Positions 14,262 through 64,000 of a stretch of 64,000 bases of DNA are shown here, one piece after another; position 1 is the first letter of the stretch; each line of letters opens with the position of its first letter. Source of the DNA: Candidatus Gottesmanbacteria bacterium RIFCSPHIGHO2_02_FULL_39_11 (lineage in GTDB: Bacteria; Patescibacteriota; Microgenomatia; 2-02-FULL-39-11). The position numbers and the translations under genes are program-made. The DNA is taken from assembly GCA_001779195.1 (NCBI GenBank), contig MFJL01000041.1, positions 16,881 through 80,880 on the forward strand, written 5' to 3'. Below the pieces are notes generated by a model that worked only from the letters and a program-made list of their open reading frames with translations, had not been told where the DNA came from and made no database searches.

Positions 14262-14306
14262 ATTGATATTGTTATCCTGACATGATAGGCTAAAACCTTA
14301 AATCTT

Positions 14307-14753: not shown

Positions 14754-14788
14754 AATGCGGACCGAGTTATAAACTCGCTCCGGCAAAA

Positions 14789-14869
14789 ATTTGTCATCCT
14801 GAGCTAAAGCGAAGGATCCCGTTGGCTCTACTTAAACCGATCGGGATTCTTCACTTCGTTCAGAATGAC
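14789..14869. repeat. palindromic intergenic element of the TTTGTCATCCTGAG...GAATGAC family (MITE/REP-like)
   Basis: TTTGTCATCCTGAGCTAAAGCGAAGGATCCCG ... CGGGATTCTTCACTTCGTTCAGAATGAC forms an imperfect long hairpin. The core is near-identical to the copy at 56733-56768. Confidence 0.6.
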
Positions 14870-20479: not shown

Positions 20480-22846
20480 ATGACGACAAAATCACCCATA
20501 AATAAATTACACAGACTTATTAGCAGTTTTCTTATTGCTATTCTTCTTTTTGAAAGAATGTTTTCTTTTACTACCCTTTCTGCATATGCGGATGATCCCT
20601 CACCGACAAGTGCTCCTCAAGAACAGAATGCTCCGCCTCCGCCTCCGTCAGTACCGACAGCTCCTCCTCCGGCTCCTACTGTGCCTCCGGTAGATGCAGT
20701 ACCCACCGTTCCTCCTCCGGGCGGATCAGATGAACCTCCTTCCAATCAGTCTCCTCCGGTTCCAACATCAGCACCTACTGGTGAGGCCCAACCGACTATT
20801 TCTCCTAATGATCCGGTTCCGACTATTGTACCGGTAGGATATGTATCTCCGACGGGTAATCCTACTACTACTACATCGAGCGGAGCCTTGGCGGATTCAA
20901 TGGCAACGGGCGATGCGCAAGAAGGGAACGGAAGTACCTACTCGAAAGACGAATCCGTAAACGATCCAGCCAATACCAATACCGGTGCTTTTTCACAAAA
21001 TCAGGCAACAGAAGATCTAAATAAAAATTTAGAACAGGTTTCTAAAAACCTGGCAGATCTTAATAATAAAATTAATCAGTTATCCAATACCGGATTTAAT
21101 GTAGCAACCCTTAATACATTATCCGGAAATGTTTTTACGGGAGATGCCAATGCCTCAACAAATCTTTTTAACAAACTAAACAGCAATGTCACGGGTGAGG
21201 GAGGATTTGTCACTCAAAATATATACGGAAATCAGAGCGGGGACATCGTATTTCAACTAGCTGAGAGTAGTGCAACTGGAACATTTGACAGTGTCAGTCC
21301 AACAGTTACCAAAAATGCAACAACGGGAGCGGAATCTGACAATACTGCTACAACTAGCAACGGATTTACCGTCAAAGAAGCAAACGGAAATGACGCAACG
21401 ATAAATAATGATATAACTTTAAATGCCATTTCCGGAGAAAATAAAGCAGTATTAAATACCGGAAACGGTGTTGTAAAAACAGGAGATGCAAATGCACTCG
21501 CAAATATAATTAACCTTGCCAACACCAATCTGAATGTAGCAGAGTGGCTTTTCGGAGTAATTAATATTTATGGCACCCTAACCGGGAATATTATACTTCC
21601 CGATGGAACATCTGTTCTTGCCTCATCAATTACATCAAATTCACCTGTTTCAACCACAAGTAATTCACAAACCGGAGCCGGATCTGACAACACAGCTGTC
21701 TACCAAACTTCAGATACGTCCGAATTTAAAAACGTAAATACGGCAACGGTGGCAACCAATGTTGATGTAACCTCCAATACCGGAAATAACGCCAGTAACG
21801 GAAATACAAGTGGAGGAAGTGTAACCACCGGGGATGCAAATTCAGATGTAAACAGTACAACTGTTGCCAATACAAATGTAGATGATCCTGAGGGAACCGT
21901 ATGGATTGTCATGGTAAACGAGTTGGGGAAATGGATAGGAAAAATTATCGGAGCGCCATCTGAGGCTACCACGGCATCAAGTCTTCCCGCAACTATAACA
22001 ACTGGAGGAGAAGGACAGGCAACATATACCGACAGCACAACTAATTCACAAACCGGTGCAGGGTCATCAAATGACGCGCAAAATTCACAAAGTGCTAAAG
22101 AGACAACAGAGAACACAAACACTGCAGATATTAAGAATAACATAACCGTAAATGCAGATTCCGGAAACAATGCCGCAAACTACAATACCGGGGCAGGAAT
22201 AGTTGAAACCGGGGATGCAAATGCGGGAGTAAATATATTAAATCTTTCAAACCTTAACGTAAAAGCCAAGAAAGTAGTGGTGTTATTTATAAACGTCTTG
22301 GGAGATTTTATAGGAAACGTGGTAACTCCCGGACAGCCGAATGAACACGTAATAGCTGATAATTCTCAGCCGCAGACTACACCTACTCCTGATACAAGGA
22401 TTGGGGGTGCTGTATCTTCTGATCCGACACCAACTCCCACTGATGAGGTTGCAGTAAATTATGTTATTAACCAAACTGTTGTGAATATAAATCCGGTACA
22501 GACGGTTGTCAGTTACCTTACAAACAGCACGGATCAAACCGGAGAAGAGGCGTATGGAAATTCAGGCAGGATATTTACATATGCAACGGACGCTATCTAC
22601 TTTGCTGAGGTAAACCCGAATATTATTCCTACCAAGTCGCCACTTCGGGGCGTGTATCTTTCCCCTTCTTTTCTGAAAGCAACCGAGTCCACCCTCCCTG
22701 GTATGCTTCTGGGGGGAGTGTCTCTGAAAGTAAATGAACGATGGCTTTCTGTACTTCCGGTTGCAGTACTCTTGGTTATCTTAAGACGCAGACGAAAAAT
22801 CGACTTTTCAAAATATCTAAACATGCTTTTTGACATTGTACTGTAA
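20480..22846 (+). CDS. large secreted surface protein: Pro-rich N-terminal region plus the family-A repeat domain, C-terminal hydrophobic segment and RRRRK tail
   Basis: Signal peptide. PPPPSVPTAPPPAPTVPP region. Repeats NTGNGVVKTGDANALANIINLANTNLNV recurring about four times. C-terminal LPVAVLLVILRRRRK. Confidence 0.7.
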   Translation: MTTKSPINKLHRLISSFLIAILLFERMFSFTTLSAYADDPSPTSAPQEQNAPPPPPSVPTAPPPAPTVPPVDAVPTVPPPGGSDEPPSNQSPPVPTSAPTGEAQPTISPNDPVPTIVPVGYVSPTGNPTTTTSSGALADSMATGDAQEGNGSTYSKDESVNDPANTNTGAFSQNQATEDLNKNLEQVSKNLADLNNKINQLSNTGFNVATLNTLSGNVFTGDANASTNLFNKLNSNVTGEGGFVTQNIYGNQSGDIVFQLAESSATGTFDSVSPTVTKNATTGAESDNTATTSNGFTVKEANGNDATINNDITLNAISGENKAVLNTGNGVVKTGDANALANIINLANTNLNVAEWLFGVINIYGTLTGNIILPDGTSVLASSITSNSPVSTTSNSQTGAGSDNTAVYQTSDTSEFKNVNTATVATNVDVTSNTGNNASNGNTSGGSVTTGDANSDVNSTTVANTNVDDPEGTVWIVMVNELGKWIGKIIGAPSEATTASSLPATITTGGEGQATYTDSTTNSQTGAGSSNDAQNSQSAKETTENTNTADIKNNITVNADSGNNAANYNTGAGIVETGDANAGVNILNLSNLNVKAKKVVVLFINVLGDFIGNVVTPGQPNEHVIADNSQPQTTPTPDTRIGGAVSSDPTPTPTDEVAVNYVINQTVVNINPVQTVVSYLTNSTDQTGEEAYGNSGRIFTYATDAIYFAEVNPNIIPTKSPLRGVYLSPSFLKATESTLPGMLLGGVSLKVNERWLSVLPVAVLLVILRRRRKIDFSKYLNMLFDIVL

Positions 22847-46593: not shown

Positions 46594-48012
46594 ATGTTAA
46601 ATAAATCATTGCTCAGGGCAAACAAGTCCGGGATGATAGAGAGTAATATGAATAAGAAAATTATTCTCATTCTTTTTTTAATCAATTCTCTACTTGTACT
46701 CTTTCTGTATCGCAACTCTTTTTCTTCCTATTTTTTTCAGGACGACTGGTTTACACTAAAAATCAGTTCGGCAAAAAATATCGGTGACTTCTTAAATTTT
46801 TTTATCCCAAGAACTGATGTTATCTATTACCGTCCTTTAGGAATGCAGGTTTATTTTTTCATTCTTCAATTGTTATTCGGCCTGAAATCATTCCCTTTTC
46901 ATGCCACTGCTTTTATTACCCATATTGCTAATTCCGGTTTAATTTTTCTGATTTCTTTATTTCTTACTAAGAATAAAATTCAATCTGTTCTAATTTCTAT
47001 CCTGTATGCGTCATCCGCTGTTCACTTTACTCCTTTTTACTGGGCTTCTACATATCCGTTTATTTTAGGACCGGGACTTACTTTTCTGTCTTTCTATTCT
47101 TTCTTAATCTATGACAAAGCTGGTCATAACAAGTGGCTTCTACTCTCAGGTATGGCTTATGTATCGGCAATTTTTACAAATGAGATGGCAATTGTTTTTC
47201 CAGTGTTAGCGTTTTTATATGCGTTGTTATTTTCACCAAAAAGAATAAAAAGTACATTTATTTTTTTTATTATTTCACTTTTATTTTTAGGAAGACTTAT
47301 TTTTTTCCGTCCTCCAACGGTGGGGACGTATGCATTTGCTGTAAACAGAACCAGTTTTTACAACCTCCTGGGATTTGGCATGTGGACTTTCAATTGGCCG
47401 GAGGATATGAAAGCTCAGATGGTAAGTCTCGGGAAGTTTAACCCTGTTTTTATTTCCGAGTTTTATTCTTATTACACGCGGTTTATGACAAGTTTTGGAA
47501 TACTCTTTATCTCTCTTTTTATCATTCCTTTTATTTATACGATTATTAAAAAAACAAAAAATAATACTATGGTTAAAATTATTATTTTTGGTTCTCTGTG
47601 GTACTTCGCCGGACTTTTTCCCGTATTGTTTTTTCCGAATCATACATTCAGCTACTATTTACCCATTTCTCTATTCGGATTTCTGATTTTATCAACTTCA
47701 TTTCTATTTAAAGCAATTAAATCATCACAATTAAAAATTGCATTATCATCAGTTGTACTGGGGGCCTGGCTTATCTCATCTGAGGCATCAACCGATTTTA
47801 ATCAAAAAATTCACTGGGCGCCAAGAAGGGCTAAACGATCACAGGAACTTACACTAACAATTGCTGAGAAAAAAAGACAGCAGCCTGACAGAGAATATTT
47901 TTATATTTTTCCGGCTTCTGAGAATAAATTAGCCTTAAACGACCAGGATGGCTTACAGGTATATTTTAAGGATAAAAACATGAAAACGATATATGCATAC
48001 GGGGAAAATTGA
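46594..48012 (+). CDS. polytopic membrane protein, GT-C-like putative glycosyltransferase. Alternative start 46648.
   Basis: More than 10 TM helices. Acidic loop motif YFFQDDWFTLK. Hydrophilic C-terminal domain. Confidence 0.45.
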   Translation: MLNKSLLRANKSGMIESNMNKKIILILFLINSLLVLFLYRNSFSSYFFQDDWFTLKISSAKNIGDFLNFFIPRTDVIYYRPLGMQVYFFILQLLFGLKSFPFHATAFITHIANSGLIFLISLFLTKNKIQSVLISILYASSAVHFTPFYWASTYPFILGPGLTFLSFYSFLIYDKAGHNKWLLLSGMAYVSAIFTNEMAIVFPVLAFLYALLFSPKRIKSTFIFFIISLLFLGRLIFFRPPTVGTYAFAVNRTSFYNLLGFGMWTFNWPEDMKAQMVSLGKFNPVFISEFYSYYTRFMTSFGILFISLFIIPFIYTIIKKTKNNTMVKIIIFGSLWYFAGLFPVLFFPNHTFSYYLPISLFGFLILSTSFLFKAIKSSQLKIALSSVVLGAWLISSEASTDFNQKIHWAPRRAKRSQELTLTIAEKKRQQPDREYFYIFPASENKLALNDQDGLQVYFKDKNMKTIYAYGEN

Positions 48013-51335: not shown

Positions 51336-52111
51336 AAAAAAATCTAAGCGCAGTTATTATTACGAGAAATGATAGCGATGATTTAGAAGACTGCATAAAA
51401 GAGTTATCCTTCGCCGATGAAATAATTGTTATTGACAATAACTCAACCGATGATACGGCAAAAATAGCCAAATCGTTAAAAGCTATGGTTTACAATGTTG
51501 GAGGACTTGATTTTTCGTATTTGCGAAATATCGGAAAAGAAAAATCGGAAGGGGAGTGGATTTTATATATTGATACGGATGAAAGGATCACAAAAGAGCT
51601 GAAAAATGAAATTGTATCATTCCTTAAAAAACCTGGCGATTATATGGCAGGGCTTTTTATCAGGAAAAATTTCTTTTTCGGAAGTCCCTGGAATCATTCG
51701 GACCGGATGACCAGACTCATGAAAAAAGAAGCCCTTATCGGATGGCACGGGCAGCTTCATGAAACTCCTCATGTAAGGGGCAATGTCTATACATTTAAAA
51801 ATCCGCTCTTACACTATACTCATGATAATTTAACCCAAATGGTTAGTAAGACAAATGAGTGGTCTGAAATTGAAGCACAACTTAGGTATCAGAATAATCA
51901 TCCTCATATCGTCGGGTGGCGCTTAATACGAGTTATGATTACGGCATTCTTTCAATCCTATATTCGGGAGGGAGGATGGAAGTGCAAAACGGTGGGGGTG
52001 GTAGAAAGTATTTATCAATCTTTTAGTATGTTTATTACTTATGCAAAATTATGGGAAAAACAAAATCGCGCGCTGATTGAAGAAAAAGACTATGATAAGC
52101 CGAACTCCTAA
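51332..52111 (+). CDS. GT2 family glycosyltransferase
   Basis: LSAVIITRNDSDDL, VIDNNSTDDT, YIDTDERI. Confidence 0.7.
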   Translation: MKKNLSAVIITRNDSDDLEDCIKELSFADEIIVIDNNSTDDTAKIAKSLKAMVYNVGGLDFSYLRNIGKEKSEGEWILYIDTDERITKELKNEIVSFLKKPGDYMAGLFIRKNFFFGSPWNHSDRMTRLMKKEALIGWHGQLHETPHVRGNVYTFKNPLLHYTHDNLTQMVSKTNEWSEIEAQLRYQNNHPHIVGWRLIRVMITAFFQSYIREGGWKCKTVGVVESIYQSFSMFITYAKLWEKQNRALIEEKDYDKPNS

Positions 52112-53177
52112 ACCTCTTAAAATCGGCATGTACAGTCCCTATCTTTCTATTTTAGGAGGTGGGGAACGTTACTTTCTCTCAATTGCTGAAATTTTATCCC
52201 AAAAAGAGAACGTCACCATTTTTTTTGATAAAAGTATTTCCCCGAAAGTTAAAGACACCCTCGGAATTAATCTGGACAAAGTATCTTTTGAATCAGAGAA
52301 AAAAATTTCTTCATCTTCTGCGATATCAAAATTTAAGCTTCTGTTAAAAATGGACGCATTTTTCTACATGACGGATGGGAGCGTTTTTTTGCCCGGTGCC
52401 AAACGGAATTTTCTTATTATCCAGTCTCCTGGTCATATGCCGGGGATTACCATTTCCCAAACGATTAAAACAGCCGGATGGAAAGTGTTGTGCTACTCGC
52501 AATTTATGAAAAGTATTCTTGAGAATCGTCTTAAAAAACCGGCAACCATACTCTCTCCGGGAATTGATACTCTGGTGTATCACACGACTACGAAAACGAA
52601 ACAGCCGATTATTCTCACAGTCGGCAGATTTTTTTCCTACCCCCATGACAAAAAACAAAAAATACTCATAGAAACTTTTAAAGAACACTCTCTTACTCTT
52701 TTTAAAGGATGGAGACTTATAGTTGCCGGAGGACTTACGGAAAAAAGCGGTGAGAAGGTTTTGGAAGATCTACAAGAATGTGCCTCCGGGTATCCCATCG
52801 ATTTTAAAGTAAATGTATCTTTTCTGGAGCTAATCAAAATTTATAAAAAGTCAACCATTTATTGGCATGCAGCCGGGTACGGAGAGGATCTGTACAGCCA
52901 TCCGGAGAGGGCAGAGCATTTTGGAATTACAACGCTTGAGGCGATGGCGGCAGGATGTGTGCCGGTTGTATATGACGGGGGTGGACAGAGGGATATCGTA
53001 GAAAATGGGGTAAACGGGTATCTCTGGCGAGAACCTCTTGATCTTGTCAAACACACGATGCATATTTTAGACCATGAGGAAACGTATCTAAGTCTTGTGG
53101 GAAACGCGTTTAAAAAAGCAGAAGAATATTCACAGCCGAATTTTTATGAAAAAGTTGTCAAGCTTCTTCACAGATAG
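52077..53177 (+). CDS. GT4 family glycosyltransferase. Start may be 52092 or 52128.
   Basis: EHFGITTLEAMAAGCVPVVYDGGGQRDIVENGVNGYLW. Confidence 0.75.
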   Translation: MKKKTMISRTPKPLKIGMYSPYLSILGGGERYFLSIAEILSQKENVTIFFDKSISPKVKDTLGINLDKVSFESEKKISSSSAISKFKLLLKMDAFFYMTDGSVFLPGAKRNFLIIQSPGHMPGITISQTIKTAGWKVLCYSQFMKSILENRLKKPATILSPGIDTLVYHTTTKTKQPIILTVGRFFSYPHDKKQKILIETFKEHSLTLFKGWRLIVAGGLTEKSGEKVLEDLQECASGYPIDFKVNVSFLELIKIYKKSTIYWHAAGYGEDLYSHPERAEHFGITTLEAMAAGCVPVVYDGGGQRDIVENGVNGYLWREPLDLVKHTMHILDHEETYLSLVGNAFKKAEEYSQPNFYEKVVKLLHR

Positions 53178-55389
53178 AAAGATATTTTTGTTTTTGGTGG
53201 GTTTAGGAGGAATATTTTTTTATCCATTTTTTATTTTCGGAAAAATTCCCATTCCCTCAGATGCCTTGGTGGGATTATATTATCCCTTCCGGGATACTCT
53301 AAATACCCGGTACCCGAACGGTTATCCGTATAAAAATCCGCTAATTACTGATCCTGTCCGTCAACAATATGTCTGGAGGGAGCTCTCAGTTGATGCGTTT
53401 AGAAAGGGGAAACTTCCCCTGTGGAATCCCTATTCATTCGCAGGTACTCCGCTTCTTGCCAATTTTCAGTCTGCTTCTTTTTATCCCTTAAATATATTAT
53501 TTTTTATTTTTTCATTTCCTTTTGCCTGGGGAATTCTAGTTTCCCTTCAGCCAACCCTCTCATTGATTTTTATGTATTTTTATCTTCGGGAGTTAAAAAT
53601 TACAAAAGCAGCATCCGTTGTCGGGAGTCTGGCTTTTTCATTTTCAGGCTTTTCCATTTCATGGCTTACGTGGAACACCGTGGGCCATACCGTTCTTTGG
53701 CTTCCCCTTATACTTCTCTCTGGTGAAAAAATTATTAAAAACACTTCCCTGAAATGGTCTCTTGTTCTTCTTTTTTCTCTGTGCTCATCTTTTTTTGCCG
53801 GTCATCTGCAGACGTTTTTCTATATAGGAGTTTTTTCACTGATTTACTTTGTTGCTAAATTAATTAATGGTATTCGTCATCCTGGATTTATTTACCCGGA
53901 AAATCCTTATGACGTACGGAAAAAATTAATAGTCTTTTTTATTTTTGTAATTCTTTTCACTGCCATCACCTCCGTCCAATGGATTCCGACTCTTGGTTTT
54001 ATTTCACAAAGTGCCAGAAATGCAGATCAGGCTAACTGGCAGAAGGAAGGATGGTTTGTGCCTCCTCAAAATCTGTTGCAGTTTTTTGCTCCTGATTTTT
54101 TCGGAAACCCAGCAACCGGTAATTATTACGGAGTCTGGAATTACGGTGAATTTATCGGATATATAGGAATGATTCCACTATTCTTTGCCCTGTATGCTGC
54201 TCTGAAATTAAAAGATAAAAAATCTATTTTCTTTGTATCCATTATTATGGTATCCATTGTTTTAATCACCGATAATCCTGTTTCTGAAATTCCTTACCGG
54301 TTAAATATCCCATATATTGGGACAAGTCAGCCCACACGGCTTATGTCTCTTATTGATTTTTCCCTCGCTGTTCTTGCCTCTTTAGGAGTAGACCAGCTCA
54401 GGAGCAACACAAAGCAGAAAAGATCTGTCTTATTCTCAATTGCAATAATACTAATGCTATTAGGAATTTGGACATTTTCCAGAAATCCGGTTGCCCGGAA
54501 TAATTTATATCTCTCCATTTTCCTGGGGCTTATTATCATTCTTACCACACAGGCATATCGTATACGGCCCTCCAAAATAGTATTGCCCGTATATTTACTG
54601 GTTACCGTTTTTGATCTTTTTCGTTTTGGGTGGAAGTTTACACCATTCACAAGTACCGATCTTTTGTATCCTCAAAGTTCCCTATTAAGTTATTTAGAGG
54701 ATAACTCACACAATTACCGGGTTATGGCAAATGACAGAAGGATTTTGCCTCCCAATGTATCCTCCCATTACAAAATTCAGGATGTTTCAGGATATGATCC
54801 TCTGTATTTACTCTCATACAATAAGTTTGTTTCTTCCTGGAACAGCAACAGCCTGAATTTGAAGCCAAGCGCATTTAACCGGATCGTAACTCCTCAAAAT
54901 TACGAGTCGCCCGTAAGCGATCTTTTAGGCATTAAATATCTTCTCAGTCTTACACCGGTTCAGTCTTTAAAATGGGAGTATGTTATGAGGGACGGGGAGA
55001 CATATCTTTATCAAAATAAAGATGTATTGCCCCGGGCGTATTTGGCACAAACCGTTTTCCAAAAAGAGACGGATCAGGATGTAATGAGAGAAGTTTTAAA
55101 TAATAAAAATTCAGATTCTGCTTTCTCAACCGAAAATATTACACTCGGGTCAAAATCTCTTACACCCAGTGAGTCAGCAGTAATTGAAAATTATGAAGAA
55201 AACGATATTCGTATTAAAGTTATATCAGGTGATACGCGAATGTTGGTATTAACTGATCCCTACTACAAAACGTGGAAAGCTTTCGTAGATGAAAAAGAAA
55301 CACAAATATTCAAAGTAAACTTTTTATTCAGAGGCGTTGTAATTCCATCAGGTGAACATATAATAGAATTTAAAAATTATTTGTTCTAG
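53149..55389 (+). CDS. YfhO-family GT-C membrane protein
   Basis: About 745 aa. N-terminal polytopic domain plus a large C-terminal extracytoplasmic domain, the YfhO architecture. The track start 53095 overlaps the preceding gene, so 53149 ATG is preferred. Confidence 0.55.
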   Translation, partial: KKLSSFFTDRKIFLFLVGLGGIFFYPFFIFGKIPIPSDALVGLYYPFRDTLNTRYPNGYPYKNPLITDPVRQQYVWRELSVDAFRKGKLPLWNPYSFAGTPLLANFQSASFYPLNILFFIFSFPFAWGILVSLQPTLSLIFMYFYLRELKITKAASVVGSLAFSFSGFSISWLTWNTVGHTVLWLPLILLSGEKIIKNTSLKWSLVLLFSLCSSFFAGHLQTFFYIGVFSLIYFVAKLINGIRHPGFIYPENPYDVRKKLIVFFIFVILFTAITSVQWIPTLGFISQSARNADQANWQKEGWFVPPQNLLQFFAPDFFGNPATGNYYGVWNYGEFIGYIGMIPLFFALYAALKLKDKKSIFFVSIIMVSIVLITDNPVSEIPYRLNIPYIGTSQPTRLMSLIDFSLAVLASLGVDQLRSNTKQKRSVLFSIAIILMLLGIWTFSRNPVARNNLYLSIFLGLIIILTTQAYRIRPSKIVLPVYLLVTVFDLFRFGWKFTPFTSTDLLYPQSSLLSYLEDNSHNYRVMANDRRILPPNVSSHYKIQDVSGYDPLYLLSYNKFVSSWNSNSLNLKPSAFNRIVTPQNYESPVSDLLGIKYLLSLTPVQSLKWEYVMRDGETYLYQNKDVLPRAYLAQTVFQKETDQDVMREVLNNKNSDSAFSTENITLGSKSLTPSESAVIENYEENDIRIKVISGDTRMLVLTDPYYKTWKAFVDEKETQIFKVNFLFRGVVIPSGEHIIEFKNYLF

Positions 55390-55423
55390 TTTTTTTGTTA
55401 TCTGTCAAATATTATTTGTTCAT

Positions 55424-56440
55424 ATGGATCTAAGTATCATTATCCCCAACTTTAACGGAAAAAAACTTTTAGAAAATAATCTTCCGAAAGTTTTAGAAGC
55501 AGGAAAAGATTGTGAAATAATTATTGTTGATGATGCATCAACAGATGGAAGCGTAGAATTTCTCAAAAAAGAATTTCCTCAAATAAAAGTTTTACAAACA
55601 TCTTATCATCCTGAACTTGTTTACTCGGAAAATTCGTTAGAATTGTTCCGAGATTCAGGATCTTCTTCAAACAAGGGCTTTTCTGCCTCCGTTAATCTTG
55701 GCGTTAGCCATGCCAAGTCTGACTTTGTTTTTCTCCTAAACAGTGACTGCTATCCTGAAAAAGGGAGTATTGAGAAAGTGATAAAGTTATTTGAAGATCG
55801 CAATTTATTTGCTGTGGGATTTGCACAGAAAAATTTAGAAGATGGAAAAACAGTCATTCGGGGAAGGGCCTTAGGGAAATTTGAAAAAGGATTTTTTGTT
55901 CATTCATACGGAAGTCCTGATAAAACAACCACTCAATGGGTGGGAGGTGGGGCGGGAGTTTTCAAAAAATCACTATGGGATCGTTTAGGAGGAATGGATG
56001 AAATTTATAATCCTTTTTATTGGGAGGATATAGATCTCTCATACCGTGCGTTAAAATCAGGGTATTCCATCCGGTTTGTTCCGGATGCATATGTTGTCCA
56101 CGAGCAAAGTAAAGGAACCATACGCAGCCATTATTCAGATTCCTATATTAAGTCCATTTCTTATAGAAATCAGATCTTATTTGTGTGGCTGAATATATCA
56201 GATCCCTACCTTTTATTAAGTCATTTCTTTTATTATCCCTATGAAGTCATTAAATCCTGGGTTAGGTTAGTGTGGTATGTCGTAAGTCGTAGGAAGAACA
56301 AAATCAGATCTTCTTCAGATCTTTCTTTTATAAAAGCTGATATCGCCTCAGAACTGAAATTCTTTTTGGCACTCGGAAAAAGATTTCAAAGAAAAAAAAT
56401 GTGGAAGAAAAAAGATAAAGAATGTTTTGTGAAGAACTAG
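55424..56440 (+). CDS. GT2 family glycosyltransferase
   Basis: LSIIIPNFNGKKLL, VDDASTDGS, YWEDIDLSYR. Confidence 0.75.
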   Translation: MDLSIIIPNFNGKKLLENNLPKVLEAGKDCEIIIVDDASTDGSVEFLKKEFPQIKVLQTSYHPELVYSENSLELFRDSGSSSNKGFSASVNLGVSHAKSDFVFLLNSDCYPEKGSIEKVIKLFEDRNLFAVGFAQKNLEDGKTVIRGRALGKFEKGFFVHSYGSPDKTTTQWVGGGAGVFKKSLWDRLGGMDEIYNPFYWEDIDLSYRALKSGYSIRFVPDAYVVHEQSKGTIRSHYSDSYIKSISYRNQILFVWLNISDPYLLLSHFFYYPYEVIKSWVRLVWYVVSRRKNKIRSSSDLSFIKADIASELKFFLALGKRFQRKKMWKKKDKECFVKN

Positions 56441-56846
56441 AAGTCATCCCAAAACCTCTTTTGCGAACTCGAGCGGGATTGCTTCGCTACGCTCGCAATG
56501 GCGGGTATTGAGATGAGTTCTAGATCAAATTTATTATCTAAGGAATTTGTACACAACTCAGAGGGGATATCAGAAATAGTATATCCATAGCTGTGGTCAT
56601 TTTCTACGCGAACTTATACCTCTGGAATAAAATTCCACTCTGTCATACTGTTATATCAGTGTTGTTCCCGCGCAGGCCTGCCTGCGCAGACAGGCGGGAA
56701 TCCATCGTTAAATTTTGTTACCCTATTTTATTTTTGTCATCCTGAGGTCTCCCGAAGGATCCCGTCCGATACCAGAAGCCTTTAAAAGAAATAGTTAGGA
56801 AATATAAAATCTCTTGTATACACTAAATATCTGATATACTCAAATT
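56441..56846. repeat. repeat-rich spacer holding at least three palindromic elements of the GTCATCC family. It separates the glycan cluster from the defense island.
   Basis: At 56441: AAGTCATCCC...CTCGAGCGGGATTGCTTCGCTACGCTCGCAATGGCGGG. At 56665-56703: TTCCCGCGCAGGCCTGCCTGCGCAGACAGGCGGGAATCC. At 56733-56768: TTTGTCATCCTGAGGTCTCCCGAAGGATCCCGTCCG. All GC-rich compared with the surrounding sequence. Confidence 0.55.
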
Positions 56847-57284
56847 ATGACTCAGCTTTTCACCACCGGTTATCAAGGGGAAACCATACATGAATTTATT
56901 CAAAAAATCACTACAAAAAATATAGAAGCAATTATTGATATCAGAGAAAATCCCACAAGCAGAAAACCAGGGTTTAGTAAAAACGCGCTTCAGAGACGAC
57001 TTGATTCTGTTGGTATAGATTACTATCATTTTCAGGAATTAGGAACCCCAAAACCCCTTCGTAATCTTTTAGCACATAGTCAAAACTATAATCAGTTTTT
57101 TGAAGAATATAAACAATTTTTACCGGAGTTTCAGGATGCTCTTGATGATATTATCGAGATAGGCAGTAATAAAAGAATTTGTCTATTGTGTTTTGAAAAA
57201 GATCCACATTATTGTCATCGAAAAATTGTCGCGAATCTTATCTCTTTCTACACCGGCAGAGATATTTCAGTCGTTCATATATAA
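56847..57284 (+). CDS. DUF488 (YeaO-like) family protein
   Basis: MTQLFTTGYQGETIHEFIQKI ... IDIRENPTSRKPGFSKNAL ... ICLLCFEKDPHYCHR, characteristic of DUF488. Confidence 0.65.
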   Translation: MTQLFTTGYQGETIHEFIQKITTKNIEAIIDIRENPTSRKPGFSKNALQRRLDSVGIDYYHFQELGTPKPLRNLLAHSQNYNQFFEEYKQFLPEFQDALDDIIEIGSNKRICLLCFEKDPHYCHRKIVANLISFYTGRDISVVHI

Positions 57285-57291
57285 TGTCTCC

Positions 57292-58083
57292 ATGGAATGG
57301 AGAGACGAAGAAATATTAATGCTTGTAAAAGTCTATCCCACACCAAGTAAGAAATATGGTGAAACCGTTTGTTCAGCAGGCATAACCCGTCATGGAAAAT
57401 GGATAAGAGTTTATCCTGTTCCATATCGTGATCTTCCTCCCAGTCAACAGTTTGTTAAATTTCAATGGATTAGGGCTAGGATTACACAAGCTAAAGAAAA
57501 ACTTAGCAGACCGGAAAGTCACAAAATAGATCTTAATAGTATAAAGTTATTAGAAAAAATTCCGGCAGGTGATAAATGGGGTGAGAGAGAAAACTATTTC
57601 TTACCTTATGTCAGTAAATCTTTAGAGGTACTTTTTGAAAATCAAAAAATCCACAACGTATCTCTTGGCGCATTTAAACCTAAGAAAGTAAAAGATTTTA
57701 TTATCGAACCCTCTGAAGATGAATGGGACTTAGGTCAAAAGGGAATACTCAGCCAAACAAGTCTCTTTAACGACAGACGTGCGACTTTAGAAAAAACACC
57801 TTACCGTTTTAGATATAAATTTACCTGTAATGACGATCGCTGTGTGGGACATAACATGATAATTCTTGACTGGGAAGTCTTTGAAAGCTACCGGAGATGG
57901 AAAAGAATTTATAAGGATGGGAAATTGACATTGGAAAAACTTAAGGAAAAATGGTTGACCTACTTTTTTCAAAAAAGAGAATCTTATTTTGTTGTCGGTA
58001 CCGAATCTGAGTTCGGAAAATTCATGATTCTTTCCATAATCAGTCCAAAACGCAAAGAGTCACAACTCAGATTTGGTTTTTAG
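57292..58083 (+). CDS. hypothetical protein (264 aa), no recognisable family. Coupled to the DUF488 gene. A TTG alternative at 57193 would overlap the DUF488 gene by 92 nt.
   Basis: ORF begins 8 nt after the DUF488 stop. Hydrophilic. Cys/His cluster CNDDRCVGHNM. Confidence 0.4.
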   Translation: MEWRDEEILMLVKVYPTPSKKYGETVCSAGITRHGKWIRVYPVPYRDLPPSQQFVKFQWIRARITQAKEKLSRPESHKIDLNSIKLLEKIPAGDKWGERENYFLPYVSKSLEVLFENQKIHNVSLGAFKPKKVKDFIIEPSEDEWDLGQKGILSQTSLFNDRRATLEKTPYRFRYKFTCNDDRCVGHNMIILDWEVFESYRRWKRIYKDGKLTLEKLKEKWLTYFFQKRESYFVVGTESEFGKFMILSIISPKRKESQLRFGF

Positions 58084-58112
58084 TAGGGTAAACAACGACA
58101 TAATAGTATCTG

Positions 58113-58155
58113 AATTTCTTGTGGATAAGTACTATAATCCACGTATAAGGTTTTT
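58113..58155 (+). repeat. direct repeat copy 1 (GAATTTCTTGTGGATAAGTACTATAATCCACGTATA). Copy 2 is at 59616-59658.
   Basis: About 43 nt with about 88% identity between the copies. Contains a TATAAT -10-like hexamer and TGTGGATAA. Confidence 0.6.
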
Positions 58156-58165
58156 TTATTTATGG

Positions 58166-58255
58166 ATGAAAGAGTTGATGAGTGAATTTACAAGTTTAGC
58201 TGAAGAGGCGCGCAAACTAGAAAAGAAAATAGTTGAGGGTTGGAAAAGTATTTAA
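58166..58255 (+). pseudogene. 3'-terminal remnant of a type I RM hsdM gene
   Basis: MKELMSEFTSLAEEARKLEKKIVEGWKSI parallels the C-terminus of the intact HsdM at 61210-61299 (MKELTEEFRTLTKEAHELEKKIEEDWEKII). Confidence 0.6.
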
Positions 58256-58302
58256 TCATGGCAAATTCGCCATAATTAAATATTAATATCTTAGCTAAAA
58301 AT

Positions 58303-59319
58303 ATGAAAAACTCACAGCCTCAATCTCAAATAATTATCTATAAAGCAGAAACTGGCGAGACTAAAATCGACGTGCGTTTTGATGGGGACACGGTCTGGTT
58401 GAGTCAGGATGAAATGGCTCGATTGTTTGACAAAGGCCGTTCAACTATTGCAGAACATATTGCTAAAGTATTTAAGGAAAAAGAACTAGTCGAGGGATCA
58501 GTATGTCGGGAATTCCGACGTACTGGCGCTGATGAAAAAGAATATCAGGTAAAATATTACAATCTCGATGTTATTATCTCCGTTGGTTACCGAGTCAAGT
58601 CACTCCGTGGTACTCAATTTCGTATTTGGGCAACCAAGCGTCTGCGCGAATATATCGTCAAAGGTTTTGTGATGGATGATGAGAGACTGAAAAACCCCGA
58701 TCTGCCGTTTGATTATTTTGAAGAACTCACTCGTCGTATTGCTGATATCCGCACTTCAGAAAAAAGATTTTATAGAAAAATTACAGACATCTATGCTACC
58801 AGTGTCGATTATGACCCGACAGACAAACAGAGTATTCTCTTTTTCAAAACGGTCCAAAACAAAATGCATTATGCAATTACCGGAAGTACTGCGGCGGAGA
58901 TAGTAGCCAGTAGAGTGGATAGTAAAAAACCAAATGTGGGACTGACAAACTTCAGGGGTAATAAACCAACAAAAGAAGAAGTAGTGATCGCCAAAAATTA
59001 TTTGAGTGAACAAGAGCTTCTTGTTTTAAATAATCTTGTCGAGCAATATCTCGTATTTGCGCAAGGACAGGCCATACAAAGAGTGCCAATGTATATGAAA
59101 GACTGGATTGGTAAACTCCATGCATTTTTACAGATTAATAATAAAGATATTTTGAAAGATGCAGGAAGAATCTCTCACGAGTTGGCTACAGAAATAGCCG
59201 AAAGGAATTTTGATGAATACAAGAGAAATGAAGTAAAAAAATTAGATAATAATTTTGATTTGGCTGCTTTACACGCGCTTGAAATTGCAAAGAAAAAGAA
59301 AGGGGAGGATAAAAAATGA
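58303..59319 (+). CDS. RhuM family virulence/defense-island protein
   Basis: IIYKAETGETKIDVRFDGDTVWLSQDEMARLFDKGRSTIAEHI ... YNLDVIISVGYRVKSLRGTQFRIWATKRLREYIVKGF, a strong match to the RhuM family core. Confidence 0.8.
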   Translation: MKNSQPQSQIIIYKAETGETKIDVRFDGDTVWLSQDEMARLFDKGRSTIAEHIAKVFKEKELVEGSVCREFRRTGADEKEYQVKYYNLDVIISVGYRVKSLRGTQFRIWATKRLREYIVKGFVMDDERLKNPDLPFDYFEELTRRIADIRTSEKRFYRKITDIYATSVDYDPTDKQSILFFKTVQNKMHYAITGSTAAEIVASRVDSKKPNVGLTNFRGNKPTKEEVVIAKNYLSEQELLVLNNLVEQYLVFAQGQAIQRVPMYMKDWIGKLHAFLQINNKDILKDAGRISHELATEIAERNFDEYKRNEVKKLDNNFDLAALHALEIAKKKKGEDKK

Positions 59320-59381
59320 CTATGCAATTTTAAAAAATGCAAAATTACTTCATGGAAATAGGCCTGTCAAGAAAACTCTTC

Positions 59382-59528
59382 TGTCATCCTGAAATCGTCT
59401 ACCCTGAGTCTTATCGAAGGGTTTCAGGATCTTCTTTTTGTCATTCTAGCTTGTCCAGAATCTGTGTTGTTTCCATGTCATCCTGAATTTGCTTGTACTG
59501 AGCTTGTCGAACGTATCCAGAATCTGTC
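59382..59528. repeat. cluster of three imperfect palindromic GTCATYCTGA...CCAGAATCTG elements
   Basis: TGTCATCCTGAAA...TTTCAGGATC, then TTTGTCATTCTAGCTTGTCCAGAATCTG, then TGTCATCCTGAATTTG...TCCAGAATCTG. Confidence 0.5.
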
Positions 59529-59615
59529 TTTCCTTTTTCTTTCTCTCTTCTTTTGCTTTCCTCCTCTAAACCTCTAAACCTTTCTCCATAAAGAAAAATT
59601 GAATACGTATCGGAA

Positions 59616-59658
59616 TTTCTTGTGAATAAGCAGTATAATCCACGTATACAAGTTAGGA
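59616..59658 (+). repeat. direct repeat copy 2 (GAATTTCTTGTGAATAAGCAGTATAATCCACGTATA), about 60 nt upstream of hsdM. Probable promoter region.
   Basis: See copy 1. The TATAAT hexamer is retained. Confidence 0.55.
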
Positions 59659-59721
59659 GCCTTCAACCAATTAAGAAGATAAAACAAACAAATTAGTATT
59701 TTGCTGACTTATAATAAATAT

Positions 59722-61299
59722 ATGAATACACACAGTAGTCAACTTCAGGAACAATTGTGGGCAGCAGCTGAGCACATGCGTGCAAATAGCAGTCTAAAGC
59801 TGAACGAAATCTCAGAGCCAATTTTAGGTCTTATTTTTCTCAAATTTGCTGATGTATGTTTTCAAAGAGCTACAAAAGAGCTAGAAAAAGATAGATTATC
59901 CATAAAATCTTCAAGACAAAGACCTCTTATTTCAGATGACTATAAAGCAATGGGAGTTATTTATATTCCGAAAGAAGCATCATACTCATATCTTATTAGT
60001 CTCCCGGAAAATGAAAATCTAGGAAAAACAATAAACGGTGCCATGAAAACAATTGAGGAAGAAAATCGTGAGCTTGCTGGAGTATTACCCCAAGATTATA
60101 CCAATATTTCTAGGAAAGCTGATGAAAATAACCGAATACTTATATCGCTACTAAAAAGCTTTAATCAAATTCCTGATGATATTGAAGGGGACTCTTTTGG
60201 TGAAATATATGAATACTTTCTGGGGAATTTCGCTCTTTCTGAAGGAAGAAATGGAGGAGAATTCTTTACAGCACAATCAATAGTAAAGCTTTTAGTTGAA
60301 ATTATTGAACCCTATCATGGAAGGATTTATGATCCTGCTTGCGGAAGCGGGGGCATGTTTGTACATTCTGCTCATTTTGTGGCTGAACATATAAAAAATA
60401 AATCTCATGTGATGGACGAAGTGGCAATCTATGGACAAGAGAAAACAGACTCTACCGTCAAAATTGCCAAAATGAATCTCTCAATTCATGGACTTTCAGG
60501 AAAAATTATCCAAGCAAACTCATTTTACGAAGATGTATATGAAAGTGTCGGAAAATTTGATTTTGTGCTTGCAAACCCTCCTTTTAATGTAAAAGGGAAA
60601 GATAAAAGAGGACAATTGGTCATAGATCCCGCTCGACTTCATGGGGATCCCAGGTATTATTTCGGTCTTCCTCTTACAGGTAAAAAAGAGATAAGTAATG
60701 CTAATTATCTCTGGATTCAGATCTTTACCAGCGCATTGTCATCAAAAGGGCGTGCCGGATTTGTTATGGCTAATTCTGCAACGGATGCAGGTAATGCGGA
60801 AAAGGGAATTAGGGAAAAACTAATTGAAGAGGGAATTGTGGATGTTATTATCTCAACTCCTCCCAATATGTTTCTTAACGTTACTCTTTCATCAACGTTA
60901 TGGTTTTTAGATAAAGGTAAAAAAAGCACGGATAGACAAAATAAAATTTTGTTTATTAACTCCCAAGATATTTTTACTCCTGTTGATCGCGCACACAATA
61001 GATGGACGGATGAACAAATCCAAGAAATCGCTGGAATTGTTCGGCGATATCGAAGTGAAGAAGGAAACGAAAAATATAAAGATATAAAAGGCAGGTGCAA
61101 AGTTGCAACTCTTGATGAAATTAAGGCCAATGATTATTCGCTAAATCCTGGAAGATATATAGAAATAGTTGAAAAAGAAATGGATGATGTGGAGTTTGAA
61201 GCAAGAATGAAAGAATTAACTGAAGAATTCAGAACTCTAACCAAAGAAGCTCACGAGCTTGAAAAGAAAATAGAGGAAGATTGGGAGAAAATTATATGA
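59722..61299 (+). CDS. hsdM: type I restriction-modification system DNA methyltransferase subunit M
   Basis: Motif I IYDPACGSGGMF. Motif IV LANPPFNVKG. N-terminal HsdM_N-like helical domain. The track start 59701 is a TTG; ATG is at 59722. Confidence 0.9.
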   Translation: MNTHSSQLQEQLWAAAEHMRANSSLKLNEISEPILGLIFLKFADVCFQRATKELEKDRLSIKSSRQRPLISDDYKAMGVIYIPKEASYSYLISLPENENLGKTINGAMKTIEEENRELAGVLPQDYTNISRKADENNRILISLLKSFNQIPDDIEGDSFGEIYEYFLGNFALSEGRNGGEFFTAQSIVKLLVEIIEPYHGRIYDPACGSGGMFVHSAHFVAEHIKNKSHVMDEVAIYGQEKTDSTVKIAKMNLSIHGLSGKIIQANSFYEDVYESVGKFDFVLANPPFNVKGKDKRGQLVIDPARLHGDPRYYFGLPLTGKKEISNANYLWIQIFTSALSSKGRAGFVMANSATDAGNAEKGIREKLIEEGIVDVIISTPPNMFLNVTLSSTLWFLDKGKKSTDRQNKILFINSQDIFTPVDRAHNRWTDEQIQEIAGIVRRYRSEEGNEKYKDIKGRCKVATLDEIKANDYSLNPGRYIEIVEKEMDDVEFEARMKELTEEFRTLTKEAHELEKKIEEDWEKII

Positions 61300-61328
61300 A
61301 AAAGTAGTCGGATAAGGTGAATTGTTTA

Positions 61329-61358
61329 TTGACTTTTTATTCTGTTATAGTGTAATAT
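61329..61358 (+). promoter_or_regulatory. sigma-70-like promoter candidate for the ATPase gene (TTGACT, 18 nt spacer, TAATAT)
   Basis: Hexamers read directly from the sequence. Ends about 30 nt upstream of the 61390 start. Confidence 0.3.
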
Positions 61359-61389
61359 ATGTGCATGATCATTATTTTAGCCTTATTAC

Positions 61390-62862
61390 ATGACGGAAAT
61401 TGATGTCCAACTACTCGCCCAACTTCGCACCTGGAATCCCTGGTGGCAACAAGGTAGAGAAGGAATTGATAGGTATAAAGATCCTTCTTATAAGCGTGAG
61501 CTCTATACTAACATCTGTAATCAGTATAAAGACGGCAACCAGATCGTAAGCATCATAGGGATGCGTCAGGTAGGAAAATCTACTTTGATGCGCCAAGTGA
61601 TCAAAAATTTACTTGACTCTGGAGTTGATCCTAAGACAATTCTCTATATTTCATTCGATGATCCATTCGTTCGGGTTAAATACGATAAGAAAAAAATATT
61701 CGACATCATAGTTGAGATTTTCCTGCAGGGATTGATTCAGGAGGACCTGGATGTATATAAGGGCACATTGTATTTTTTTCTGGATGAGATCCACCAGCTT
61801 CCCAACTGGGAAAAAACACTGAAAACTTACTATGATCGATCATTTCCCATTCGGTATATGGTCAGCGGATCATCATCGATCCAGTTGCAGTCGAAAAATA
61901 AAGAGAGTTTACTCGGAAGGATATCCGAATATGTTCTTTGGCCATTTTCATTCCGTGAATATCTCGAGTTTCATGAGAATAAGGATAAGCAGATACAAGG
62001 TGTGATACAGGAAGCCCGAGAAGTTTTTACGAAATATAACACCACATTTGATATACACACAATATATGAATCATTACAAGATCTCTACAAAAAAGCATTT
62101 GTGTGGAGTAAGCAACCTATCCAGTCCAATCTTCAAAAATTTATAGTCTGTGGCGGGTTCCCGAGAGCTTGGCAGCAGCTTGATTTTATATCCCGGCAGC
62201 GGATCTTGTGGGAACAGCATGTCGGGAAAGTGATTTTTGAAGATCTGGTACAGGTAGCAAATATCCGTAAACCGCGAGACCTCGAGTTTTTGTTCACCTA
62301 CATCATCGAAAACAACGGCAAAGAAGTGAAACTGGGTGAGATGAAACATAACTTAAATATTCATTGGGAAACACTCGATAGATATCTCAGCTATCTTATC
62401 CGTACGTTTCTTATTTTTCGCGTCGAGCGGACGAAGACGAAGCGTCTCCTGCAGAAAAGAAGATCGGGGAATGTGAAGTTCTACCTTACTGACGTAGCAC
62501 TGCGAAACGCATTTTATAACCGTACTGAAGATGTTTTTTTTGATTCCGAAGAGATGTCCTTTATTGCGGAAAATCTTGTCTGCACGGCAATCGAGCGTTG
62601 GCTACGTGGGCCTAAGAAAGAAGAGCAGGTATCCTTTTATAAAGACAGGAGCGGAGAAGTGGACTTTATATTTAAAGGACCAAATAATATCACGCCAATC
62701 GAAGTCAAATGGAGATCCGACATGCCGCCCTTGAAAACATTACTAAAACTAGAAACATCCTGGAGCACGACGCAAAGTCTTCTCATTACGAGAGATCAGG
62801 AACTTGACTTACGGGGAGGCAGACTCTCGATCCCTTTATGGTTTTTCCTATTATGTTTTTAA
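61390..62862 (+). CDS. AAA-family ATP-binding protein of the DUF4143/COG1373 type, embedded between hsdM and hsdS
   Basis: Walker A IIGMRQVGKSTL. Walker B-like FFLDEIHQL. About 490 aa with the typical length and architecture. Confidence 0.7.
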   Translation: MTEIDVQLLAQLRTWNPWWQQGREGIDRYKDPSYKRELYTNICNQYKDGNQIVSIIGMRQVGKSTLMRQVIKNLLDSGVDPKTILYISFDDPFVRVKYDKKKIFDIIVEIFLQGLIQEDLDVYKGTLYFFLDEIHQLPNWEKTLKTYYDRSFPIRYMVSGSSSIQLQSKNKESLLGRISEYVLWPFSFREYLEFHENKDKQIQGVIQEAREVFTKYNTTFDIHTIYESLQDLYKKAFVWSKQPIQSNLQKFIVCGGFPRAWQQLDFISRQRILWEQHVGKVIFEDLVQVANIRKPRDLEFLFTYIIENNGKEVKLGEMKHNLNIHWETLDRYLSYLIRTFLIFRVERTKTKRLLQKRRSGNVKFYLTDVALRNAFYNRTEDVFFDSEEMSFIAENLVCTAIERWLRGPKKEEQVSFYKDRSGEVDFIFKGPNNITPIEVKWRSDMPPLKTLLKLETSWSTTQSLLITRDQELDLRGGRLSIPLWFFLLCF

Positions 62863-62875
62863 CGAAAAATATTTT

Positions 62876-64000
62876 ATGACAACCTGGACAAAACAAAAAT
62901 TGGGAGATTGTCTCAGTTTCAGAACCGGCAAACTTAATTCAAATGCTGCAATTAAGAATGGAATGTATCCATTCTTTACATGCTCTCAAGAAGTATACAA
63001 AACGAATACATGGAGTTTTGATACTGAATGTGTGCTTTTGGGGGGAAATAATGCTGATGCAATTTACCCCCTTTTTTATTTTAAGGGTAAGTTTGATGCT
63101 TATCAAAGGACCTATGTTATAGAATCTAAAAATAATAACAATATACGGTTTTTTTATTACGTTTTGCGTAAAAAGCTTGAAGACCTTCGAAATCAATCAA
63201 CAGGAGCTACTACAAAGTTTTTAACACTAAAAATCTTAAACAACCTTCAGATAACCACTCCAAATGAATTTATACAATCTCAAATGGTTGCTGTTCTCTC
63301 CTGTTATGATGACCTAATCGAAAACAACGAGAAGCGAATAAGGATTTTAGAGGAAATGGCGCAGAGGCTTTATACAGAATGGTTTGTAAAATTCAAATTC
63401 CCGCTTGCCCGCCGTAGCCTTAGCGAAGGACGGGGACATGAAAAAGTGAAAATGCTTGAAAGCGGAACAGAATATGGAATGATTCCTGAAGGATGGAAGG
63501 TAGTTTTAATGAAGGATGTTGCAGAAATAGTGGACTGTTTGCATTCAAAGAAACCAGAACGAATTAGAAGCGGAACTCATATATTATTACAGTTAAATAA
63601 TATTTTAGAAAACGGTCTTATAGATATATTAGATAAGTACATAATAAGTGAGGATGATTATCAGAAATGGATAAAAAATATTGAATTACGGAAGGGAGAC
63701 TGCGTAATAACAAATGTTGGACGAATTGCAGCAACAGCACAAATTTCTGGTGAAATCAGGTTAGCAGCCGGTAGAAATATGACTGCAATAAGACCTAAAA
63801 GAATTCCTGATTCATTCTTAATTCAATATCTAAAATCTCCTCACATTGAGAGAGAAGTCAAAATGAAAATTGATGCGGGGGCTATTATGGGAAGCTTGAA
63901 TGTTAAAAGTATCTATATATTGAAAATACTCTTACCTGATGATAGCACACTAGAGAATTTTTCAGTAATAGCTTCTTCTTGGAGAGAAGAAATGAATATA
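62876..64000 (+). CDS. hsdS: type I restriction-modification system specificity subunit S, 3'-truncated by the window edge. Not in the ORF track because no stop is reached.
   Basis: Translated by hand from ATG 62876: MTTWTKQKLGDCLSFRTGKLNSNAAIKNGMYPFFTCSQEVYKTN...GGNNADAIYPLFYFKGKFDAYQRTYVIESKNNN...RFFYYVL. Central coiled spacer NEKRIRILEEMAQRLYTEWFVKFKFP, then a second TRD (GMIPEGWKVVLMKDVAEIVDCLHSKKPE...). Confidence 0.85.
   Translation, partial: MTTWTKQKLGDCLSFRTGKLNSNAAIKNGMYPFFTCSQEVYKTNTWSFDTECVLLGGNNADAIYPLFYFKGKFDAYQRTYVIESKNNNNIRFFYYVLRKKLEDLRNQSTGATTKFLTLKILNNLQITTPNEFIQSQMVAVLSCYDDLIENNEKRIRILEEMAQRLYTEWFVKFKFPLARRSLSEGRGHEKVKMLESGTEYGMIPEGWKVVLMKDVAEIVDCLHSKKPERIRSGTHILLQLNNILENGLIDILDKYIISEDDYQKWIKNIELRKGDCVITNVGRIAATAQISGEIRLAAGRNMTAIRPKRIPDSFLIQYLKSPHIEREVKMKIDAGAIMGSLNVKSIYILKILLPDDSTLENFSVIASSWREEMNI

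Follow-up and report, generated by a model that had tools for sequence, protein, structure and literature searches.

The distal part of a 64,000-nt stretch of contig MFJL01000041.1, from Candidatus Gottesmanbacteria bacterium RIFCSPHIGHO2_02_FULL_39_11 (the whole stretch is called the window here, and positions are counted from its first letter), encodes a type I restriction-modification (RM) system accompanied by candidate defence genes. In the explanation that we hold with considerable confidence, a complete type I RM operon carries embedded candidate defence genes, and the 3' remnant of an hsdM gene was imported along with one of them, RhuM; the whole most likely constitutes a chromosomal defence island of about 11 kb within a cluster of cell-envelope glycosyltransferase genes in this groundwater member of the candidate phyla radiation (CPR; Microgenomates). 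This explanation builds on direct observation of the gene content and integrity of the locus, its conserved catalytic motifs, the variable cargo of related loci, the mobility of an ATPase cassette and the recurrence of hsdM-tail scars. The locus follows a well-described pattern and is not a new kind of system.

A complete type I operon with genes in both of its gaps

Features were called from a gene listing and frame translations, combined with Pfam and PADLOC scans of the window, and all those of the locus lie on the + strand. An earlier, sequence-only reading of this DNA had proposed the order hsdM-tail remnant, RhuM, hsdM, a DUF4143 AAA ATPase and hsdS, the last starting inside the window and open to its end, and these calls bear it out throughout. 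That reading had also remarked that hsdR is missing from the window, which is so only because the window ends, and had placed the gene either beyond position 64,000 or nowhere; extension of the contig, which it had suggested, settles the choice for the former and against absence. Contig L001 (ENA ERZ4903137 k141_3161789, 136 kb) and two more assemblies, L002 and L003, were retrieved by exact-protein look-up of the ATPase, and all three share the same arrangement. Compared with window positions 51390-64000, L001 shows 2 mismatches in 12,611 overlapping bases, both (at 54453 and 54459) within a YfhO gene and outside the locus; the locus itself is identical, and L001 therefore serves as an extension of the window. 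With this extension the gene order becomes PDC-M19 pair, hsdM remnant, RhuM, hsdM, ATPase, hsdS, 200-aa open reading frame (ORF) and hsdR, the genes from the ATPase to hsdR being spaced 1-13 nt apart. The operon and the genes in its gaps are as follows:

59722-61299, + strand: hsdM, type I N6-methyladenine (m6A) methyltransferase subunit, 525 aa, intact, HsdM_N and N6_Mtase domains
61390-62862, + strand: ATPase-nuclease with AAA_14 and DUF4143 domains, 490 aa, PADLOC PDC-S01, filling the slot between hsdM and hsdS
62876-64000, + strand: hsdS, from the ATG at 62876, the window ending after 375 of its 403 codons; Methylase_S, E 2.8e-24
L001 12700-13302 (89-691 nt past the window end): 200-aa ORF, separated from hsdS and from hsdR by 1 nt each, GC content 0.30
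L001 13304-16453 (starting 693 nt beyond the window end): hsdR, 1049 aa, intact, 1 nt after the 200-aa ORF

The hsdM ORF opens at 59701, and its likely start is the ATG at 59722, since alignments with homologues begin at the first residue of the 525-aa form. The product contains PF12161 (HsdM_N) and PF02384 (N6_Mtase; E 9.7e-84 in Pfam), matches PADLOC MTase_I with an E value of 4e-185, and has, at residues 204 and 285 respectively, the two motifs expected of a type I subunit with a gamma-class N6-adenine methyltransferase domain, S-adenosylmethionine motif I (DPACGSGG) and the catalytic NPPF; against the TIGR00497 equivalog it scores 122 bits, below the cutoff of 243. On L001 hsdS is complete at 403 aa, with Methylase_S matched in two stretches, as for two target recognition domains (TRDs), and with central and C-terminal conserved regions that align with those of homologues. 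HsdR displays HSDR_N, SWI2_SNF2/ResIII, T1R_D3 and T1RH-like_C domains, that is, a PD-(D/E)xK nuclease, a superfamily 2 (SF2) motor and a C-terminal assembly domain; it scores 518 bits against TIGR00348 (cutoff 285) and retains D..ELK at 154-172, GSGKS at 307 and DEAH at 403. The GC content of the three genes is 0.35. Because hsdS and hsdR are complete on L001 and catalytic motifs are present throughout, the type I system is complete, with hsdM, hsdS and hsdR all intact, and is neither orphan nor decayed.

The best-studied solved relative is EcoR124I (type IC), which shares all three subunits and their domain make-up. HsdR matches its EcoR124I counterpart with an E value of 2e-35; for HsdM the value is 3e-38 against the EcoR124 M protein and only 1e-9 against that of EcoKI. 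Judged by sequence, the subunits are nearer to EcoR124I than to EcoKI among solved structures. The systems nevertheless differ in several ways: sequence similarity between the subunits is low, the Gottesmanbacteria operon reads M-x-S-x-R with foreign genes in both gaps, and its HsdS bears 10 extra residues where the central conserved region meets TRD2. If the system works like the type I enzymes that have been characterised, an M2S1 assembly would methylate a bipartite target at N6-adenine, and the addition of two HsdR subunits would allow translocation on, and cleavage of, unmodified DNA; m6A methylation of a bipartite motif and ATP-dependent cutting at a distance from it would be the expected activities. 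A phase-variable hsdS shufflon was also considered and rejected, since the locus lacks additional hsdS copies, a recombinase and long inverted repeats.

The setting of these genes becomes clearer by comparison with 80 related loci, drawn from a GTDB genome scan with HsdM (49-82% identity) and belonging to CPR, other bacteria and archaea. When the window proteins were mapped onto them, a common M-(cargo)-S-(cargo)-R layout emerged, in which the gaps span 0 to about 3 kb and the cargo is highly variable. The 95 gap ORFs scanned include members of the SoFic/Fic, AAA_21/AAA_15, YhcG-DUF1016 (PDC-S02), UvrD and Schlafen-AlbA2 families, as well as DUF3800, DUF3644, DUF4435, DUF6602, PIN and RhuM. 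It is by such embedding, in type I RM, BREX and DISARM loci, that the PDC families were defined (bioRxiv 10.1101/2024.01.29.577857). The proposal that RhuM and the ATPase represent recurrent, RM-embedded defence cargo is supported by this comparison, by the literature and by their assignment to PADLOC PDC-S05 and PDC-S01, respectively. We envisage an operon with two cargo slots, that between hsdM and hsdS occupied by the ATPase cassette and that between hsdS and hsdR by the 200-aa protein, with RhuM and the PDC-M19 pair lying upstream; the cargo genes would act as additional or back-up anti-phage effectors.

Several of the HsdM relatives (52-71% identical) occur in archaeal metagenome-assembled genomes (MAGs), namely L019 (Nanoarchaeota) and L046, L050, L053 and L063 (Methanophagales, Methanoperedens). 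Together with a junction of hsdM and ATPase in L019 that is described below, these sequence relationships point to transfer of the RM lineage between domains. Overall, the locus offers a clean and complete CPR example of a type I RM operon serving as a platform for defence cargo. It leaves current understanding unchanged and is of use as comparative material on embedded defence genes and CPR immunity, with leads on how cargo moves: an ATPase in the form of a promoter-plus-gene cassette, hsdM-tail duplications at cargo borders in at least four lineages, and a rare small gene in the S-R slot.

RhuM and the hsdM tail fragment

Upstream of hsdM lie a RhuM gene, a fragment of a further hsdM and two copies of a short repeated element:

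58106-58147, + strand: 42-nt element, copy 1, with a perfect TATAAT at 58133-58138; 90% identical to copy 2 (direct repeat D1)
58166-58255, + strand: hsdM 3' remnant, 29 codons (58166-58252) and a stop (58253-58255), with no upstream hsdM body; encodes MKELMSEFTSLAEEARKLEKKIVEGWKSI
58303-59319, + strand: RhuM, 338 aa, PADLOC PDC-S05, predicted toxin/effector
59320-59606, no strand assigned: non-coding spacer with GC-rich repeats resembling repetitive extragenic palindromic (REP) elements, TGTCATCCTGA... at 59382 and 59476 (D2, D4, D7)
59607-59648, + strand: 42-nt element, copy 2, 74 nt upstream of hsdM; TATAAT at 59634-59639, 82 nt upstream of the hsdM ATG

RhuM matches PF13310 over the full length of the domain (E 1.9e-105, profile positions 1-248 of 252) and PADLOC PDC-S05 over its full length as well (E 4e-134); a PDB sequence search gave no match. 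Anantharaman et al. 2013 (PMC3710099) put the family forward as a toxin domain of R-M operons, and the association with a type I system seen here agrees with that account. A PDC-S05 gene cut T7/T5 plating about 1000-fold in one screen (10.1101/2024.09.26.614923). The RhuM of this locus may be a toxin, possibly one triggered when restriction is bypassed. It has no fused Doc/Fic domain, and its location is different, since in the relatives L009, L018 and L049 RhuM occupies the slot between hsdM and hsdS, whereas here it lies upstream of hsdM, behind the hsdM tail fragment.

That fragment, recognised as an hsdM 3' remnant in the sequence-only reading, is indeed one, with 59% amino acid identity to the 29 C-terminal residues of the resident HsdM (tblastn within the locus, E 3e-8). 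It is closest, moreover, to the tails of RhuM-linked hsdM genes; the string ELMSEFTSL is common to the remnant and to the tail of the RhuM-linked hsdM of L018, and the 47 nt between remnant and RhuM are similar to the hsdM-RhuM gap in L009. When each related locus was searched with its own HsdM tail, significant duplicates (E 5e-6 to 5e-11) were found in three relatives:

L008 4229-4288: duplicate hsdM tail after Fic, ending at the hsdS start
L018 12664-12753: duplicate hsdM tail after RhuM, ending at the hsdS start
L057 10869-10952: duplicate hsdM tail after YhcG, ending at the hsdS start

On sequence grounds, these duplicates look like recurrent scars of cargo exchange, in which the 3' end of hsdM was carried along or left behind. 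Most likely, the Gottesmanbacteria RhuM arrived still attached to the last 30 or so codons of the hsdM that it formerly followed.

The 42-nt element bears on how RhuM would have been accommodated. It has two matches in the window against an expectation of 0, is absent from 87 related loci even when up to 9 substitutions are allowed, and was not found in Joint Genome Institute (JGI) metagenome contigs. Given its absence from all of these, the two copies look like a local duplication. From its position, copy 2 is a putative hsdM promoter, and copy 1 may be a promoter that now drives RhuM, in which case RhuM would be expressed from a local copy of the resident hsdM promoter region.

The main rival for the origin of the remnant, which we consider unlikely although it survives better than any other alternative raised by the locus, is that a second type I system (P-hsdM'-RhuM-hsdS'-hsdR') once stood in tandem here and decayed in place, leaving the remnant behind. 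In favour of such a history, the 42-nt element stands before both the remnant and the intact hsdM, and the required order, hsdM-RhuM-hsdS-hsdR, does exist in L009 and L018. In-place decay, however, requires two separate clean deletions, and no hsdS or hsdR fragment is detectable in the spacer at 59320-59606. The degrees of similarity also argue against it, for the encoded tails are 59% identical whereas the non-coding 42-nt copies are 90% identical, a pattern that fits recent local duplication beside a foreign tail; nor is the element conserved even in loci where HsdM is 80% identical. Import of the remnant along with RhuM is the reading that we prefer.

The ATPase-nuclease and the gene between hsdS and hsdR

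The gene in the M-S slot encodes the two domains that define PDC-S01, AAA_14 (PF13173, E 6e-36) and DUF4143 (PF13635, E 5e-28), and matches the PADLOC PDC-S01 profile (PDLC04787) over residues 33-486 with an E value of 1.7e-64. NCBI lists the identical protein, from a Candidatus Gottesmanbacteria MAG, as hypothetical. According to PMC12988326, PDC-S01 is a fusion of an ATPase and a nuclease and ranks fourth in frequency among prokaryotic defence types; DUF4143/COG1373 belongs to the PD-(D/E)XK superfamily (PMC3424549). The residues expected for both activities are invariant in 45 homologues that range from 31 to 84% identity: G57, G62, K63 and T65 of Walker A, D132 and E133 of Walker B, and E394, D425, E438 and K440 of the PD-(D/E)xK site. 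An AlphaFold2 (AF2) model with a predicted local distance difference test (pLDDT) score of 90.5 places these in an AAA+ module, followed by a helical/winged-helix region and a C-terminal alpha/beta domain that holds the PD-(D/E)xK residues. The best solved folds are the RFC, ORC/Cdc6 and Apaf-1/NLR ATPases, with low TM-scores, and PDB sequence searches found no match; no close relative has a solved structure. The protein may be an NTP-switched nuclease that acts as an independent anti-phage effector.

Several features suggest that this gene moves on its own. Its GC content is 0.41, against 0.35 for hsdM, hsdS and hsdR, and it is preceded by a conserved region:

61320-61389, + strand: conserved region of about 70 nt preceding the ATPase gene; promoter-like TTGACT-18-TAATAT at 61329-61358

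This region is kept before orthologues in both RM and non-RM contexts (L088, L090, L091 and L092). Among the closest orthologues (72-85% identical), five of the six contexts examined by protein look-up are without any RM genes, the neighbours being instead nusA, Fic with Phd, a YcaO cluster, an SNF2 helicase, and a small-gene island beside a YfhO-glycosyltransferase cluster. Since the upstream region is conserved regardless of genomic context, the ATPase appears to be a self-contained mobile cassette, a gene travelling with its own promoter-like region. In this respect it departs from the notion of "guilt-by-embedding" under which PDC-S01 (AAA_14 + DUF4143, COG1373) was recognised: the architecture is the same, the match is full-length and the gene is embedded in a type I RM operon, yet its orthologues are mostly found outside RM loci.

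The placement of a single effector gene inside a type I operon recalls PrrC/RloC (EcoprrI), and raises the possibility of a second line of defence when restriction is blocked. It could accordingly be imagined that the ATPase-nuclease is a functional accessory subunit of the type I enzyme, sensing blocked restriction as PrrC does with EcoprrI, or cleaving DNA. The gene lies 13 nt from hsdS, there is the precedent of PrrC as an effector silenced by a type I enzyme, and the M-ATPase order is also seen, again across some 90-100 nt, in the Nanoarchaeota MAG L019 (46% identity between the ATPases) and in L092/L093 (58%), the RM genes of the latter two being decayed, with hsdM split and hsdR truncated. 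We nonetheless find an accessory role doubtful. The predominance of orthologues without RM neighbours and the conserved promoter-like region of the gene both stand against it, as does the lack of an ABC-ATPase or HEPN domain. PrrC and RloC combine an ABC-type ATPase with a HEPN RNase, whereas the protein encoded here combines an AAA+ module of the ORC/RFC/STAND type with a PD-(D/E)xK domain of the DNase type, and it resembles them in position only. A PrrC-like identity was rejected on these grounds, there being no ABC or HEPN match, and a PrrC-like dependence on the RM complex, although possible, is less likely than action as an independent effector.

The 200-aa ORF represents a rare family in the S-R cargo slot. 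It has no match in Pfam (E <= 0.1), NCBIfam, PHROGs or PADLOC; a word-indexed search recovered only 15 homologues and a full profile search 53 representatives out of 1.84 billion, in varied contexts that include one beside an Eco47II/Dcm/Vsr module. Its predicted fold, tentatively, comes closest to LanB elimination domains, and the ORF was compared with the LanB/SpaB C-terminal (glutamate-elimination) domain and with thiopeptide pyridine synthases. It differs from these in being about two-thirds the size of that domain, in having no Pfam match, and in having no precursor of a ribosomally synthesised and post-translationally modified peptide (RiPP), nor any partner enzyme, near it. Against PF14028 (Lant_dehydr_C/SpaB_C) specifically, it stayed short of the threshold, and only one homologue has a weak precomputed match.

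Integrity and setting of the island

The one irregularity within the core genes is a short insertion in hsdS:

63404-63433, + strand: in-frame hsdS insertion, 30 nt, GC-rich (67%) and palindromic, encoding LARRSLSEGR (aa 177-186)

It falls where the central conserved region borders TRD2 and interrupts a conserved F[KR]FPGHE motif, which is continuous in 30 of 33 HsdS homologues; its sequence is present once in the window. An independent 10-aa insert occupies this position in the HsdS of L057, and that of L038 has a 12-aa insert four residues further on; the Gottesmanbacteria insertion probably lies in a loop. The HsdS encoded by the MAG behind L021, 53-58% identical overall, has a TRD2 very like the one here and would be expected to recognise one half-site in common. 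This element, the gene in the S-R slot, the upstream PDC-M19 pair and the duplicated 42-nt element are features beyond those noticed in the sequence-only reading. One could take two of them to signal something novel: the 200-aa LanB-elimination-like protein would be an undescribed accessory or defence component of type I RM in CPR, and the palindromic insertion, with its independent recurrence at the same site in another lineage, would exemplify a new way in which small repeat elements alter specificity. We regard this as unlikely.

Less likely still is a decaying RM locus, with the remnant, the hsdS insertion and the interposed genes as signs of an inactive system that is coming apart. The presence of an hsdM fragment and of a foreign 30-nt insertion in hsdS could be taken in that sense, as could the split hsdM and truncated hsdR of the related L092/L093, which carry the same ATPase. 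In the Gottesmanbacteria locus, however, hsdM, hsdS and hsdR are full-length with intact catalytic motifs, the insertion is in frame and at a site where L057 and L038 also tolerate inserts, and the close spacing from the ATPase to hsdR is that of a working operon; the specific form of decay foreseen from the window, an hsdS truncated or frameshifted and no hsdR, is refuted by the extension of the contig. An orphan M/S, methyltransferase-only system without a restriction subunit, suggested by the lack of hsdR inside the 64-kb window, can be set aside almost entirely, given the exact match of L001 to the locus, its intact hsdR with nuclease, Walker A and DEAH motifs, and the same arrangement in L002 and L003.

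Some points weigh against our interpretation of a complete operon with embedded defence cargo and an imported remnant. The organism is uncultured and the locus is known here from its sequence; the 10-aa insertion lies beside the central conserved region of HsdS; and the origin of the remnant, whether by import with RhuM or by decay of a tandem system, is judged from one genome. In consensus scans, promoter-like and terminator-like sites were no more frequent than chance, so that operon structure is deduced from spacing and conservation only. In the one published test found, the candidates that gave E. coli protection against T4, T5 or T7 did not include a PDC-S01 representative (10.1101/2024.09.26.614923), and for that reason the defence role of the ATPase is put forward as a candidate role.

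The island spans from about 56.8 kb to 3.8 kb beyond the window end and is flanked by glycosyltransferase, YfhO and PMT_2 genes. It begins with two genes directly upstream of the remnant:

56847-57284, + strand: DUF488 protein (PDC-M19A); Pfam DUF488, E 5e-32; PADLOC PDC-M19A, E 5e-44
57292-58083, + strand: PDC-M19B protein, 263 aa; PADLOC PDC-M19B, E 4e-65; phrog_25907, E 2e-52

The ORF of the second is open from 57193, and its start was taken from the L001 gene call; it has no Pfam or NCBIfam match. Adjacent and on the same strand, the two constitute a complete PADLOC PDC-M19 candidate pair, which extends the defence island upstream. As to the surroundings, a 72%-identical orthologue of the ATPase in L090 (ENA ERZ21828276 contig-100_692) lies in another small-gene island, beside a YfhO-GT1-GT2-GT2 cluster (GT, glycosyltransferase). 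That cluster resembles the one flanking the Gottesmanbacteria island, and the YfhO-glycosyltransferase site may be a hotspot of island insertion. An Rfam scan of the whole window found no RNA gene, and a tRNA scan likewise found nothing, and hence no tRNA-linked integration site.

Elsewhere in the window, Pfam gives no match at E <= 1e-5 for four large ORFs of 447-788 aa, namely 20480-22846, 15238-16752 (- strand), 7511-8854 and 46594-48012. The intergenic regions of this AT-rich genome also contain GC-rich, REP-like palindromic motifs (TGTCATCCTGA..., CGAAGGA... and GCGCAGGCCTGCCTGCGCAG), at 56440-56760, 59380-59530, 14270-14802, 48188 and 55604. The TGTCATCCTGA motif has 8 occurrences in the window against 0.9 expected; as markers of the island borders these motifs were rejected, since they are also intergenic elsewhere in the window. 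Folding of the spacer region (59320-59700) revealed no significant overall structure (z 0.47), and the spacer contains a hairpin at 59386-59431 that is followed by a T-run. The REP-like motifs also give rise to spurious short ORFs.

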